Source: Escherichia coli 042
GTDB taxonomy: Bacteria; Pseudomonadota; Gammaproteobacteria; Enterobacterales; Enterobacteriaceae
Reading direction: 5' to 3' (one strand)
Assembly: GCF_000027125.1 (NCBI RefSeq)
Contig: NC_017626.1
Length of the DNA: 64,000 bases
Within the stretch, counting starts at the first letter, position 1; every line of letters begins with the position of its first letter. The notes beneath the pieces are model-generated. The model was not told the DNA's origin. It worked only from the letters and a program-made list of their open reading frames with translations, and did not search any database. Positions 24,842 through 60,880 of this stretch are shown here, in pieces. Position numbers and translations under genes: made by a program.

Positions 24842-24980
<139 letters not shown>

Positions 24981-26810: not shown

Positions 26811-27569
26811 ATGTCCTTCATGTCTTCGTTCTTTCACGGCAGATTTCTGCATCCAGGCGTGTTTTCGTTATGCGTTTTGCTCCCTTTACTCGCCAGCGCC
26901 ACCACATCACATATCTCTTTCAGCTACGCCGCCCGCCAGCGGATGCAAAACCGTGCGCGTTTATTAAAACAGTACCAAACCCATCTGAAAAAACAGGCCA
27001 GCTATATTGTGGAAGGCAATGCCGAAAGCAGAAAGGCGCTGCGCCAGCACAACCGCGAACAGATAAAACAGCATCCAGAATGGTTTCCTGCGCCGCTCAA
27101 GGCGAGTGACAGACGCTGGCAGGCGCTGGCGGAGAACAACCATTTCTTAAGCAGCGACCATCTGCACAACATCACCGAAGTGGCGATTCACCGCCTGGAG
27201 CAGCAGCTTGGTAAGCCTTACGTCTGGGGCGGCACGCGGCCCGATCAAGGCTTCGACTGTAGCGGGTTGGTTTTTTATGCCTACAACAAGATCCTCGAGG
27301 CGAAGCTCCCGCGCACGGCCAATGAGATGTATCACTACCATCGGGCAACGATTGTGGCGAATAACGACCTGCGCCGGGGAGATTTGCTGTTTTTCCATAT
27401 TCACAGCCGTGAGATTGCCGATCATATGGGCGTGTATCTGGGAGACGGTCAGTTTATCGAGTCGCCGCGCACCGGGGAAACCATTCGGGTAAGTCGGTTA
27501 GCTGAACCTTTCTGGCAGGATCATTTTTTAGGCGCGCGCAGGATTTTGACGGAAGAGACGATTTTGTAG
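26811..27569 (+). CDS. yafL: NlpC/P60-family peptidoglycan peptidase lipoprotein YafL
   Basis: 252-aa ORF with the NlpC/P60 catalytic Cys context (GFDCSGLVFYAY) and His (HMGVYLGDGQFIESP). Confidence 0.85.
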   Translation: MSFMSSFFHGRFLHPGVFSLCVLLPLLASATTSHISFSYAARQRMQNRARLLKQYQTHLKKQASYIVEGNAESRKALRQHNREQIKQHPEWFPAPLKASDRRWQALAENNHFLSSDHLHNITEVAIHRLEQQLGKPYVWGGTRPDQGFDCSGLVFYAYNKILEAKLPRTANEMYHYHRATIVANNDLRRGDLLFFHIHSREIADHMGVYLGDGQFIESPRTGETIRVSRLAEPFWQDHFLGARRILTEETIL

Positions 27570-27655
27570 GACGGATAAGGCGTTCACGCCGCATCCGGCA
27601 ATAGTGCACCGATGCCTGATGCGACGCTGCCGCGTCTTATCATGCCTACGAGTCT
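27568..27655. repeat. REP elements
   Basis: GGATAAGGCGTTCACGCCGCATCCGGCA ... TGCCTGATGCGACGCTGCCGCGTCTTATCATGCCTAC. Confidence 0.8.
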
Positions 27656-28247: not shown

Positions 28248-28665
28248 GCGCGGATGCCTGATGCGACGCAGGCGCGTCTTATCATGCCTACAAACTTGTG
28301 CCGGATCGGTGGGCCGGATAAGGCGTTCACACCGCATCCGGCAATTGTGCACCGGTGCCTGATGCGACGCTGGCGCGTCTTATCATGCCTACAAACCTGT
28401 GCCGGATCGGTGGGCCGGATAAGGCGTTCACACCGCATCCGGTAATTGTGCACCGGTGCCTGATGCGACGCTGGCGCGTCTTATCATGCCTACAAACCTG
28501 TGCCGGATCGGTGGGCTGGATAAGGCGTTCACACCGCATCCGGCAATTGTGCGCAGATGCCTGATGCGACGCTGACGCGTCTTATCATGCCTACAAACTT
28601 GTGCCGGATCGGTAGGCCGGATAAGGCGTTCACGCCGCATCCGGCAATTGTGCACCGATGCCGGA
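28248..28665. repeat. BIME/REP array (about four ~100-bp units) directly downstream of rayT
   Basis: Unit TGCCTGATGCGACGCTGGCGCGTCTTATCATGCCTACAAACCTGTGCCGGATCGGTGGGCCGGATAAGGCGTTCACACCGCATCCGG repeats with about 100-bp period. Confidence 0.85.
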
Positions 28666-35059: not shown

Positions 35060-35168
<109 letters not shown>

Positions 35169-39277: not shown

Positions 39278-39988
39278 ATGACCATTGAAACACTGCGCGG
39301 GCGCTATCGCCTGCACCGTTTTCCGCCGCGCCAGCGTGCGGTGACAGGAGAACCGCTCACCGCCAGCATTAGCGCCGCCGATTACCAGCGCCAGTTGATG
39401 GACGGTTTTCAGGAAGGGCTGCAAAAAGGCTTTGCTCAGGGAATGACCGAAGGTCAGGAGCAGGGCTTTAGCGAAGGTCATCAGCAAGGTTTTGCCGAGG
39501 GGCGACGCCAGGGTTACACCGAAGGCAGCCTCGCCGGGCAGCAGGAAGGGCGCAAACAGTTTGTTGAGGCGGCGCAGCCGCTGAAAGCCATCACCGGAAA
39601 AGTGAACGACTTCCTCGCCCATATCGAACGTAAACAGCGGGAAGATTTGCTGCAACTGGTGGAAAAAGTCACCCGCCAGGTGATCCGCTGCGAACTGGCG
39701 CTGCAACCGACGCAGTTGCTGGCGCTGGTGGAAGAGGCACTGGCGGCCTTCCCGGCGATGCCGGAGACCCTGCAAGTAATGCTGAGCACGGAAGAATTTA
39801 ACCGCCTGCGCGACGCGGTGCCGGAAAAGGTCAGTGAATGGGGGCTGACGCCTTCGCCGGATCTGCCGCCGGGGGAATGCCGGGTGATCACTGATAAATC
39901 AGAACTGGATATCGGCTGCGAGCATCGCCTGGAACAGTGCATGACCGCACTGAAAGAAACCCTAACGCCGGAGTCTCAGGGTGAGTGA
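39278..39988 (+). CDS. lfiH: Lateral flagellar export ATPase regulator FliH homolog
   Basis: 236-aa ORF with the AxxxG/GxxxG repeat tract (GFQEGLQKGFAQGMTEGQEQGFSEGHQQGFAEG). Confidence 0.85.
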   Translation: MTIETLRGRYRLHRFPPRQRAVTGEPLTASISAADYQRQLMDGFQEGLQKGFAQGMTEGQEQGFSEGHQQGFAEGRRQGYTEGSLAGQQEGRKQFVEAAQPLKAITGKVNDFLAHIERKQREDLLQLVEKVTRQVIRCELALQPTQLLALVEEALAAFPAMPETLQVMLSTEEFNRLRDAVPEKVSEWGLTPSPDLPPGECRVITDKSELDIGCEHRLEQCMTALKETLTPESQGE

Positions 39989-41318
39989 TTTTTCCGCTTT
40001 CGATAACGCGCTGCGCTCGCTGGAGTCGATCCCGCTGGCCCGCGTCGCCGGGCGGCTGGTGCGGCTTAACGGCATCCTGCTGGAGTGCGTCGGCTGCTCG
40101 CTAATGACCGGACAACTGTGCCGCATCGAAAGCGCCAATCACACGCTGATCGACGCGCAGGCCGTGGGCTTTAACCGCGACATCACCTACTTAATGCCGT
40201 TTAAACAGCCGGTCGGACTGATGGCGGGCGCACGCGTCTTCCCGGAAGAAAAAGCCCACGACATCCTGATTGGCGAAAGCTGGTTAGGCCGCGTGGTTAA
40301 CGGCCTCGGCGAACCGCTGGATGGCAAAGGTCGCCTGAACGGCAACGATCTTCTGCCGCCGCTGCCGCCGTCGGTCAATCCCTTAACCCGCCGATCGGTG
40401 GACGAACCGCTGGACGTGGGCGTGAAAGCGATCAACGGCCTGCTGACCATCGGCAAAGGCCAGCGCGTCGGTCTGATGGCGGGCAGCGGCGTCGGGAAAA
40501 GTGTGCTGCTGGGGATGATCACCCGCCAGACCAAAGCCGATATCGTGGTGGTCGGGCTGATTGGCGAACGCGGGCGCGAAGTGAAAGAGTTTATCGACCA
40601 CTCACTGGGCGCGGACGGGTTGGCAAAGTCTATCGTCGTCGTCGCGCCTGCCGATGAATCGCCGCTGATGCGCCTGAAAGCCACCGAACTGTGCCACTCC
40701 ATCGCTGCCTGGTTTCGCGACCGCGGGCATCACGTTTTACTGCTGGTGGATTCCCTGACCCGTTACGCGATGGCCCAGCGGGAAATAGCTCTCTCGCTCG
40801 GCGAACCGCCCGCCACCAAAGGCTATCCGCCGTCGGCATTCGGCATGATCCCCAAACTGGTCGAGAGCGCAGGCAACAGCGAAAGCTCGGGATCGATGAC
40901 CGCCATCTACACCGTGCTGGCGGAAGGCGACGATCAGCAAGATCCGATTGTCGACTGCGCCCGTGCGGTGCTGGACGGGCATATCGTATTAACCCGCAAA
41001 CTGGCGGAAGCGGGGCATTATCCGGCCATTGATATCGGCCAGTCGATCAGCCGCTGCATGAATCAGGTGACCAGCCTGGAACATCAGCAATCCGCCCGTG
41101 CGTTAAAGCAAAACTACGCCGCGTATATGGAGATCAAACCGCTGATCCCGCTCGGCGGCTACGTGGCAGGTGCCGACGCCAGCGTCGACAAAGCGGTAAA
41201 AATGTTCCCGGCTATCGAGCGGTTTTTGCGCCAGGAGATGCGCGAACCCGCCTCCCTGGAACTGGTGCAAAGCCGCCTGCAAATCCTCTTTCCTGGCGTC
41301 AAAAAGGCAGAACAGTAA
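39981..41318 (+). CDS. lfiI: Lateral flagellum-specific export ATPase FliI homolog
   Basis: 445-aa ORF with Walker A GSGVGKS and F1-ATPase-like fold character. Confidence 0.95.
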   Translation: MSDFSAFDNALRSLESIPLARVAGRLVRLNGILLECVGCSLMTGQLCRIESANHTLIDAQAVGFNRDITYLMPFKQPVGLMAGARVFPEEKAHDILIGESWLGRVVNGLGEPLDGKGRLNGNDLLPPLPPSVNPLTRRSVDEPLDVGVKAINGLLTIGKGQRVGLMAGSGVGKSVLLGMITRQTKADIVVVGLIGERGREVKEFIDHSLGADGLAKSIVVVAPADESPLMRLKATELCHSIAAWFRDRGHHVLLLVDSLTRYAMAQREIALSLGEPPATKGYPPSAFGMIPKLVESAGNSESSGSMTAIYTVLAEGDDQQDPIVDCARAVLDGHIVLTRKLAEAGHYPAIDIGQSISRCMNQVTSLEHQQSARALKQNYAAYMEIKPLIPLGGYVAGADASVDKAVKMFPAIERFLRQEMREPASLELVQSRLQILFPGVKKAEQ

Positions 41319-41320
41319 CC

Positions 41321-41755
41321 ATGCGACAAATCATCGACACCCTCGCGCAGTTGCAGCGCCTGCGGGATAAATCGGTCAAAGACAAAACTGTCGAGCTGGC
41401 AAAGCAAAAACAGATCTGCGCGGGCTATGACAACAATATTAAGGCGTTAGGCTACCTGGTAGAGAAAACGTCTGCGGGCGCGGCGGCGTCGGTGGAATCG
41501 CTGAAAAACGTCAGCGGCTACAAAGGCACCCTGCGCAAGGTGATCGCCTGGCAGGAACAGGAAAAAACGCTGGCTAACATCAAAGCCACGCGAATGCAGA
41601 AAAACCTGACGGCGGCGGCGTGCGAAGAGAAAGTGGTGGCCCTGACGCTGGACGACAAACGCCGCGAGCAGCAGGAAAGCGCCACGGCGAAAGCGCAAAA
41701 AGCGGTGGATGACATTGCCGTTCAGTGCTGGCTACGGCATAAATTAGCGGAGTAG
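41321..41755 (+). CDS. lfiJ: Lateral flagellar export chaperone FliJ homolog
   Basis: 144-aa coiled-coil-type ORF following fliI. Confidence 0.8.
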   Translation: MRQIIDTLAQLQRLRDKSVKDKTVELAKQKQICAGYDNNIKALGYLVEKTSAGAAASVESLKNVSGYKGTLRKVIAWQEQEKTLANIKATRMQKNLTAAACEEKVVALTLDDKRREQQESATAKAQKAVDDIAVQCWLRHKLAE

Positions 41756-41757
41756 CG

Positions 41758-42162
41758 ATGAAAACGGTCATCACCTTCGGCACCTTTGATGTGTTTCACG
41801 TCGGTCATCTGCGCCTTTTACAACGCGCCCGCACGCTGGGCGAACGGTTGCTGGTCGGCGTATCGTCCGATGCCCTGAACATCGCCAAAAAGGGCAGGGC
41901 ACCGGTTTACCATCAGGATGACCGCATGGCGATCATCGCCGGGCTGGCGTGCGTGGAGGGCGTATTTCTGGAGGAATCGCTGGAGCAGAAAGCGGAGTAT
42001 TTGCGGGGGTACGGTGCGGATATTTTGGTGATGGGCGATGACTGGGCGGGGAAGTTTGACGATTTCTCGTGTGTCTGTGAGGTGGTCTATTTTCCCCGTA
42101 CGCCATCGGTATCGACGACGGAGATTATTGAGGTGATTAGGGGTAAATCAGCCACCTACTGA
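41758..42162 (+). CDS. Glycerol-3-phosphate cytidylyltransferase-like protein (TagD-like)
   Basis: 134-aa ORF with the cytidylyltransferase signature TFGTFDVFHVGHLRLL (HxGH) and C-terminal RTPSVSTTEII. Confidence 0.8.
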   Translation: MKTVITFGTFDVFHVGHLRLLQRARTLGERLLVGVSSDALNIAKKGRAPVYHQDDRMAIIAGLACVEGVFLEESLEQKAEYLRGYGADILVMGDDWAGKFDDFSCVCEVVYFPRTPSVSTTEIIEVIRGKSATY

Positions 42163-42217
42163 TTTAATTCCCGCGGTGAGAGAAGATGATGCCGTCTGCC
42201 GTTTGGCTATGTTAAAT

Positions 42218-42320
42218 ATGTTTAAAAAATCGCGTTTTTTCGACATATCCCCAAAACATGTCGATGGCATAAACGTATTCCAACGACATGTTTAAAAATC
42301 GCATTTTATCGACATATCCC
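42218..42320. repeat. Two direct copies of a ~33-bp hairpin-forming element between the convergent transferase genes
   Basis: ATGTTTAAAAAATCGCGTTTTTTCGACATATCCCC (about 42218-42252) and ATGTTTAAAAATCGCATTTTATCGACATATCCC (about 42288-42320); each has an A-run/T-run hairpin core. Confidence 0.6.
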
Positions 42321-54335: not shown

Positions 54336-54420
54336 TGCCTGATGCGACGCTGGCGCGTCTTATCAGGCCTACGAGTCGCCCGTATGTAGGCCGGATAAGG
54401 CGTTCACGCCGCATCCGGCA
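54336..54420. repeat. REP elements between lfgJ and lfgK
   Basis: TGCCTGATGCGACGCTGGCGCGTCTTATCAGGCCTAC ... GTAGGCCGGATAAGGCGTTCACGCCGCATCCGGCA. Confidence 0.8.
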
Positions 54421-60836: not shown

Positions 60837-60880
60837 TGGCGGACTTGCCGATGCGGCGTAAACGCCTTATCCGGCCACGA

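Follow-up and report, generated by a model that had tools for sequence, protein, structure and literature searches.

The DNA analyzed here is a 64,000-nt stretch of Escherichia coli 042 (contig NC_017626.1), hereafter called the window, and all coordinates are positions in it. Between a tagD-like cytidylyltransferase gene and a glycosyltransferase (GT) gene of a secondary flagellar locus, the window contains a pair of similar A+T-rich repeats at 42218-42320. These repeats are very probably the orphaned distal part (unit 2 and the core of unit 3) of the promoter/operator array of a deleted sofic gene, that is, a genomic scar and not a regulatory device of the flagellar locus. SoFic is a toxic single-gene anti-phage defense that is hard to clone unless tightly repressed (PMC12249575), and in intact loci the array is most likely the operator with which SoFic would repress its own gene. 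The variable region 1 (VR1) of this flagellar locus, Flag-2, once held an anti-phage toxin gene, lost by a single shared deletion event that about 2% of complete E. coli genomes carry today, and the scar rewrote the C-terminus of a flagellin-modification GT.

The initial annotation of this region described two direct copies of about 33 bp, each with an A-run/T-run hairpin, lying between convergent genes, and proposed that they form a bidirectional terminator pair or a protein-binding site. The copies are indeed there: copy 1 (42218-42251) and copy 2 (42288-42320) are identical at 31 of 34 positions, with one gap, and a repeat search returns a 30-nt direct repeat (42222-42251 and 42291-42320) with 90% identity and a spacing of 69 nt. 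The top 30-mer direct repeat within 41800-42800 has 27 matches out of 30, against 18-22 and a single 24 in 300 first-order Markov simulations, so the repeat goes beyond what is expected by chance. No further occurrence of the 34-mer is found in the 64 kb with up to three mismatches. The hairpin style was also correctly described for copy 1, which holds AAAAAA-TCGCG-TTTTTT, while copy 2 has the degraded form AAAAA-TCGCA-TTTTA. Both copies exist, but they are not free-standing: copy 1 is the core of unit 2 and copy 2 is the core of unit 3 of a 70-bp periodic array, and all of the sequence between them is the rest of unit 2, including a central palindrome composed of opposed CGACATGT half-site-like motifs located in unit 2 and at the boundary between units 2 and 3. 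Copy 1 is intergenic, as proposed, but copy 2 reaches into the GT open reading frame (ORF), covering its final codons and its TAA stop (42306-42308). The neighboring genes are convergent today only through the deletion of sofic, which used to lie between them. Tandem Repeats Finder reports nothing in the window, where only one full unit and a 30-nt core (1.4 units) are present.

The origin of the repeats can be read from loci in which sofic is intact. In E. coli UCPROB-002 (locus L003) the fic gene sits in the VR1 slot, between the cytidylyltransferase and GT genes, and blastn of the window against this locus gives four colinear blocks: 41800-42174 (the end of tagD with the final sofic codons and stop), 42177-42213, 42215-42329 (repeat units 2 and 3), and 42338 onwards (the 3’ end of the GT gene). 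The annotated fic gene ends at position 357 of that locus, inside the first match, and its product has the C-terminus ...LLRELNQ. The second block is an internal fragment of sofic whose encoded peptide, NIAKRQTASSSL, corresponds to SoFic residues 316-327 in the domain that forms a winged helix-turn-helix (wHTH), with 11 of 12 residues identical by tblastn at 42213-42178. These are the only residues recovered when an EcSofic-type Fic protein is searched by tblastn over the whole window; a full-length SoFic of about 358 aa is absent and only scraps of 19 and 37 nt remain. Since sofic coding scraps flank the repeats, the element arrived together with sofic.

Pseudocitrobacter faecalis DSM 27453 (locus L011) shares the slot, has an intact sofic gene (protein 95% identical), and is colinear with the window from the GT gene through the array. 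Relative to this locus, the window is missing about 1011 bp, comprising unit 1 and sofic, and another segment of about 75 bp from the sofic 3’ region. Judged from the alignments, unit 1 and almost the whole of sofic were lost in two deletions of these sizes. The ancestor would have had the order still seen in P. faecalis, in which the GT gene is followed by the unit 3 core, unit 2, unit 1 with its promoter, and sofic, with tagD convergent to sofic, and the two deletions would then have spared only the 19-nt and 37-nt scraps of the toxin gene. All aligned relic-bearing E. coli share one junction, AAACATATT joined to TAACATAGCC, which argues for one ancestral deletion followed by small further changes, such as a 7-bp loss in strain A3 and changes in T-run length. 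The identity of the relic to intact loci is 86-87%, and that of the neighbor genes is 88-94%. A third deletion of 222 bp between the array and the GT gene, modeled from UCPROB-002, was dropped, because P. faecalis has the window’s direct GT-array junction together with an intact sofic; the 222-bp segment, which bears a repetitive extragenic palindromic (REP) sequence, is a difference of the UCPROB-002/E1V33 lineage. The deletion junction at 42205-42215 yields CTATGTTAAAT, which matches 10 of 11 bases of TTATGTTAAAT, the XerD arm of E. coli dif; there is no adjacent XerC arm and the likeness is probably a coincidence.

The E. coli Fic proteins of 358 aa encoded downstream of the array, which occurs with them in three distinct genomic settings, contain the Fic_N, Fic and SoFic-like_C domains, the latter being a wHTH. 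They match SoFic in PADLOC at 3.7e-121 and the E. coli protein EcSofic (PDB 9VJC) with 706 bits, EcSofic matching SoFic with about 500 bits, and the intact orthologue in the VR1 slot scores 589.6 bits against NCBIfam NF046030, for which the cut-off is 550. By these homology scores, the Fic proteins of array-bearing loci are SoFic. The gene lost from the window belongs to the same family as the EcSofic defense system, and the window has no functional sofic. Moreover, the Flag-2 slot has no room for an AS1-like small gene downstream of sofic because tagD overlaps the sofic stop codon.

The anatomy of the intact array was derived from 79 loci encoding SoFic relatives, taken from 100,044 species genomes. 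In 38 enterobacterial sofic loci from about 25 genera, a 31-nt core, ATATGTCGATAAAA-N5-TTTTTTAAACAT, occurs at -31, -101, -171 and further such positions relative to the start codon, with a period of strictly 70 bp. The number of units varies from 1 to 10, three being the commonest (16 loci), with two units in 11 loci, four in 5, one in 5 and ten in a single Citrobacter locus. The unit consensus is position-specific and conserved across genera. Unit 1, with the consensus cGTGACATGTtTATgGcATCGACATAttATGgctATATGTCGATaAAAaCGGtTTTTaTAAACAT, contains a sigma-70-like promoter, GTGACA-N17-TAttAT (TATTAT), which in UCPROB-002 is called as the promoter-like site GTGACA-17-TATGAT (10/12). Its -10 hexamer and the expected point of transcription start are covered by an inverted repeat, ATCGACATAT-N7-ATATGTCGAT, after which an A/T-tract (A4-N5-T6) leader extends to the ATG. 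Unit 2 of intact loci keeps the half-sites and has ACAcGTTttgg at the position of the -10 hexamer, while the conservation of unit 3 is confined to the 31-nt core. The half-site is ATATGTCGAT, which, like the core, keeps a fixed place upstream of sofic in these genera. The motif ATGTCGA is found 13.05 times per kb in the 250 bp that precede sofic and 0.099 times per kb in the remainder of these loci, and it is also present in front of homologues with only 55-58% identity. In the window, the unit 2 core ATATGTCGAAAAAACGCGATTTTTTAAACAT occupies 42218-42248, with a half-site TCGACATAT at 42240-42248 and an inverted half-site at 42256-42264, and GGAATA and TGTTTT stand in unit 2 where unit 1 of intact loci has its -35 and -10 hexamers, respectively; no promoter-like site is called within the window array. 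These two half-sites and the one in unit 3 have remained intact, both in the window and in all relic variants that were aligned.

The array is expanded in some genomes. In E. coli 55989 (locus L008, 19339-19908), nine units fill the whole space between an Xre-type helix-turn-helix (HTH) gene and sofic, and Tandem Repeats Finder reports 7.4 copies with a period of 70. A 140-bp higher-order repeat in this array is 96% identical, which points to a recent tandem amplification of two-unit blocks. The surrounding island has a MobH relaxase, an integrase and copies of IS1. The Xre-type HTH gene was considered as a general regulator of the array and is unlikely to be one: it lies upstream of the array in 55989 and is absent from the other contexts. 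Citrobacter sp. 18056 (locus L012, about 1770-2500) has an array of at least 10 units of 70 bp.

Operators of wHTH-Fic toxins are already a known kind of element. CccR, a Fic toxin of Yersinia pseudotuberculosis with a C-terminal HTH, binds, in dimeric form, two 10-bp boxes in inverted orientation close to the -35 and -10 elements of its own promoter, and its autorepression was demonstrated by footprinting, electrophoretic mobility shift assays, isothermal titration calorimetry and reporters (PMC9755527). The sofic system resembles it in combining a Fic AMPylase with a C-terminal wHTH, in having inverted-repeat half-sites at the toxin’s own -35/-10 region, and probably also in the dimer-dependent negative autoregulation of a toxic product. 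In Shewanella oneidensis, the dimer of SoFic (mloA), but not the monomer, binds specifically to fragment F1, the 100 bp that lie directly upstream of its gene (bioRxiv 10.64898/2026.07.09.737422). The bound fragment given in the supplement of that preprint contains ATTATGTCGATAAAAGAAGGTTTTTTTAAAC and ACATGTCGATTGAATCGACATAAG in the same order as in the array (...AAACATGTCGATTAACTAAGTTTTGTAAACAT...ACATGTCGATTGAATCGACATAAG...ATTATGTCGATAAAAGAAGGTTTTTTTAAAC, and then the ATG), and the region can be written as ...ACATGTCGAT-TGA-ATCGACATAAG...ATTATGTCGATAAAAGAAGGTTTTTTTAAAC-ATG with a second core further upstream, in front of an orthologous protein. The preprint narrows binding down no further than to the 100-bp fragment, and no motif, repeat unit or half-site is defined in its searchable text. 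What is found in enterobacteria is a regular array with a 70-bp period and three position-specific units, of which only the two distal ones are left in the window. In the papers that can be searched, neither the motif nor the multi-unit 70-bp array appears, and SoFic binding is placed only on a 100-bp fragment; what is added here is a candidate SoFic operator with a half-site, a 31-nt core and three position-specific 70-bp units.

With the CccR and SoFic precedents and the motifs shared with the SoFic-bound Shewanella fragment, the array is best read as an autorepression operator. Unit 1 would be the promoter-operator, its inverted repeat straddling the -10 hexamer and the transcription start of the sigma-70 promoter; dimeric SoFic would bind the half-site pairs through its wHTH domain and thus repress its own toxic gene; and units 2 and 3, with half-sites and no promoter hexamers, would probably be auxiliary operators that tighten repression. 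This reading fits the need to silence a toxin that is too toxic to be cloned behind a single lac operator and was clonable only behind three (PMC12249575), and the array suggests how cells may achieve such silencing. In the intact loci (the 38 enterobacterial ones, UCPROB-002, 55989, EC9 and P. faecalis) the array lies directly upstream of a wHTH-Fic gene and the half-sites of unit 1 cover the -10 hexamer and the start site. In the window no such gene follows and unit 1 has been deleted, and the element is a relic of this class of operator and not a working member. With its cognate protein, promoter and gene all gone from the window, the element most likely does nothing. The occurrence of the sequence in one place per relic genome, a divergence not below that of the neighbor genes, and the further indels in the scar likewise argue that it is neutral. 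The proposal of a protein-binding site in the initial annotation thus holds by descent from operator-like units upstream of sofic, but what remains here is most likely an orphan.

Several points weigh against this interpretation. The link between SoFic and the motif is a motif identity with a 100-bp Shewanella fragment, and not a footprint, nor does it involve the E. coli protein. The CccR operator is a single one with half-site AGATAATCAT and a 10-N26-10 spacing, as opposed to the half-site ATATGTCGAT, the N7 spacing plus 31-nt imperfect palindromic core, and the 70-bp-period repeat of 1-10 units, usually 3, of sofic (whose gene is deleted in the window); its geometry cannot be transferred. 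The alignment between CccR and EcSofic is weak if any, and the sole non-SoFic PDB matches are at about 1e-11 to 1e-12. Additionally, the core is palindromic in RNA and forms the sofic 5’ leader in unit 1, where an RNA-level role is possible. A sofic copy elsewhere in the source genome, beyond the window, could still use the relic, and the intactness of the relic half-sites in all variants speaks, at such low divergence, neither for nor against constraint.

The RNA-level role is the first of the alternatives to be weighed against the operator reading. In unit 1, the core begins where transcription is predicted to start and extends as far as the ATG, whose A and U belong to its outer stem (AUAUGU/ACAUAU), and the ATG is not preceded by a recognizable Shine-Dalgarno sequence, so that the core might act mainly as a 5’-leader hairpin occluding the sofic start codon, with the window copies as dead duplicates. 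Pairing can indeed be maintained in 96.5% of the cells of an alignment of 33 unit 1 cores (31 distinct sequences), but shuffled alignments reach 96.1%, and covariation does not exceed chance, with one pair changed on both sides, a count reached by 204 of 500 shuffles. Moreover, units 2 and 3, which lie upstream of the sole promoter-like site, show the same conservation of the core, SoFic binds such DNA in vitro in Shewanella, and Rfam finds no match in the 40-kb 55989 locus with its nine-unit array; Rfam 15 also gives no relevant match in window positions 41700-42800 with E up to 1, the only hit being a chance snoRNA match elsewhere in the stretch (E = 0.6). We regard this explanation as rather unlikely. 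It is also unlikely, and slightly more so, that the relic is still a working site for a SoFic-type protein from elsewhere, acquired horizontally or not, or for another regulator, acting as a decoy or influencing the GT and tagD genes. All half-sites are intact, sofic arrays are present at other chromosomal sites in about 280 E. coli genomes, and CccR-type proteins can regulate genes besides their own (PMC9755527); against this stand the single place of the sequence in relic-type genomes, with no second array detected in them, and the divergence and indels of the scar mentioned above. A bolder version, in which the array is a higher-order operator whose copy number (1 to 10 or more units) varies and governs how tight SoFic silencing is, and the VR1 relic is read in trans by SoFic-type proteins from another island or delivered from cell to cell as reported for CccR, is highly improbable; if true, it would couple flagellin-glycosylation genes to a phage-defense regulator.

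A terminator function, the other proposal of the initial annotation, finds little room in these data. The copies do lie between convergent genes, like the palindromes of intrinsic terminators and of REP sequences or bacterial interspersed mosaic elements (BIMEs), a BIME being found at this very position in sofic-less Flag-2 loci; since the BIME/REP pair of those strains is absent here, no structured sequence other than the repeats is at hand for the convergent tagD and GT transcripts. Copy 1 also folds better than shuffled sequences, as does the central palindrome (z = -3.09 for copy 1 on the plus strand and -3.84 for the 146-nt region). However, the stems are almost pure A-U (-7.4 and -3.8 kcal/mol on the plus strand, -7.7 and -11.9 on the minus strand), RNA folds give no G+C-rich stem with a downstream U-tract at the repeat hairpins, a scan for the terminator consensus on either strand of 42163-42320 finds no site, copy 2 lies within the GT reading frame, and in all intact loci the homologous sequences are upstream and never downstream of a gene. 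A Rho-independent terminator pair is very unlikely on these grounds. The least credible explanation, with almost no weight left to it, is a mobile or dispersed element (a miniature inverted-repeat transposable element, REP/BIME, or an element like the enterobacterial repetitive intergenic consensus) or a site-specific recombination site inserted here. The slot is a known cargo hot spot, the region is A+T-rich (38.5% GC versus 53% for the whole window), and the median number of places per genome was 7 in a first distant blastn, but these places turned out to be tandem 70-bp units at one locus (9 in 55989). Copies in E. coli are found only at the Flag-2 scar or upstream of sofic at a fixed distance from the start codon, without REP similarity or dispersal in the genome, neither terminal inverted repeats nor target duplications are present, and the flanking scraps show arrival with the gene.

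The states of the VR1 slot were surveyed in 5,426 complete E. coli genomes by a distant blastn search with 42140-42340 as the query. A window-type intergenic region is found at the Flag-2 site in 107 genomes. In about 280 others, the match is limited to query positions 77-190 and lies directly upstream of a 358-aa “protein adenylyltransferase Fic”; in 55989 and EC9, for example, fic is within integrative islands carrying a MobH relaxase. An intact sofic in the VR1 slot, with three units, occurs in only 6 complete genomes. In most Flag-2-positive E. coli, such as LR-33 and 2022H047, sofic and the repeats are both missing and the slot contains only a BIME/REP pair. Other arrangements are also found: in Escherichia sp. 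E1V33 (locus L009, 2009-2302) a duplicate of the tagD 3’ end, of about 300 bp and 87.6% identical to window 41845-42143, sits between the GT gene and the sofic array, beside a REP-like sequence, which indicates further rearrangement at the hot spot. In E. coli ZH063 (locus L006, 2500-2720), a segment of about 110 bp and a BIME that correspond to UCPROB-002 locus positions 1617-1838, where they stand between the sofic array and the GT gene, are also present, adjoining unrelated hypothetical genes and not tagD or sofic, this being another cargo state of the slot.

The one visible effect of the scar is on the GT gene, to which it supplies the last 5 codons and the stop. The window GT ends in ...IVEALAGKESSGICR, whereas the native protein ends in ...IVEALG (sofic-less strains and UCPROB-002) or ...IVEALVGRKP (P. 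faecalis). The TAA stop codon of the P. faecalis GT is TCA in the window, and the ORF extends by 5 codons to the TAA within the unit 3 core. The scar-encoded tail, ...EALAGKESSGICR, replaces ...EALG and is caused by the loss of the stop codon beside the sofic array. In strain XJ6.1 (locus L001, 6993-7035) the unit 3 TAA is also mutated and the ORF continues, giving the tail ...EALADKESSGICRYNSIF.

Coordinates of the sofic remnants, array units and neighboring features in the window (L003, locus of E. coli UCPROB-002).
Feature	Coordinates	Strand	Evidence or remarks
sofic 3’-terminal remnant, 19 nt, codons ...RELNQ and TAG stop	42156..42174	-	blastn of 41800-42174 vs L003 1-375, 92%
Internal sofic remnant, 37 nt	42177..42213	-	blastn, 97% over 37 nt to L003 452-488
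Array unit 2, full 70 nt	42218..42287	-	Window 42215-42329 vs L003 1501-1616, 87%; unit 2 consensus across 18 genomes
Central palindrome, AAACATGTCGATGGCATA / TATTCCAACGACATGTTT	42254-42293	.	18-nt arms, 89% complementary; strongest hairpin of the region (fold of 42190-42335)
Array unit 3, core only, ATATGTCGATAAAATGCGATTTTTAAACAT	42288..42317	-	Half-site TCGACATAT at 42309-42317; contains the GT stop codon
FliI	39981-41318
FliJ	41321-41755
tagD-like glycerol-3-phosphate cytidylyltransferase, 134 aa, Flag-2 VR1 cargo	41758..42162	+	Pfam CTP_transf_like 2.7e-20
GT ORF, GT2 domain, Flag-2 VR1	42306..44849	-	Pfam Glycos_transf_2 2.4e-17
Flagellin lysine-N-methylase-like ORF	44956-45924	Opposite to tagD
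REP/BIME-like sequences	24843-24875, 27565-27601, 28612-28647, 35078-35113, 51080-51112, 51126-51215, 54359-54418, 60850-60876

The surrounding Flag-2 genes, namely fliI, fliJ, tagD, GT, a lysine-N-methylase gene and flgN, identify the locus. The stretch is 96% identical to E. coli chromosomes annotated as fliI-fliJ-cytidylyltransferase / glycosyltransferase-lysine-N-methylase-flgN-flgM-flgA, and it represents Flag-2, the locus of the secondary (lateral) flagella. Here the genes lfiJ and lfgN bound the slot known as variable region 1, a cargo hot spot that mostly carries flagellin glycosylation genes (TagD, GT2, LafV), and the term “Fic” appears nowhere in the comparative Flag-2 paper that describes it (PMC6993521). 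The tagD-like protein also matches TIGR01518 (5.6e-33, below the cut-off of the model), and its last codons, ...RGKSATY, overlap the former 3’ end of sofic. The C-terminus KSATY is common to the window and to sofic-bearing loci, while the protein of the sofic-less LR-33 ends in ...GLL. The GT ORF as called has a GTG start and 847 aa, compared to 812-823 aa for RefSeq homologues, and the true start is probably further downstream; Pfam finds only the N-terminal GT2 domain in it.

The 201-bp scar region (42140-42340) is 100% identical to that of E. coli 118UI, EC31 and others, while the surrounding 2 kb (41300-43300) is 95.7% identical, which suggests that the flanking tagD/fliJ or GT genes are a mosaic produced by recombination. 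REP/BIME-like sequences of 33-37 nt occur across the window, some of them in Flag-2 intergenic spaces, and are 89-100% identical to the REP sequences beside sofic in E1V33 and in locus L010.

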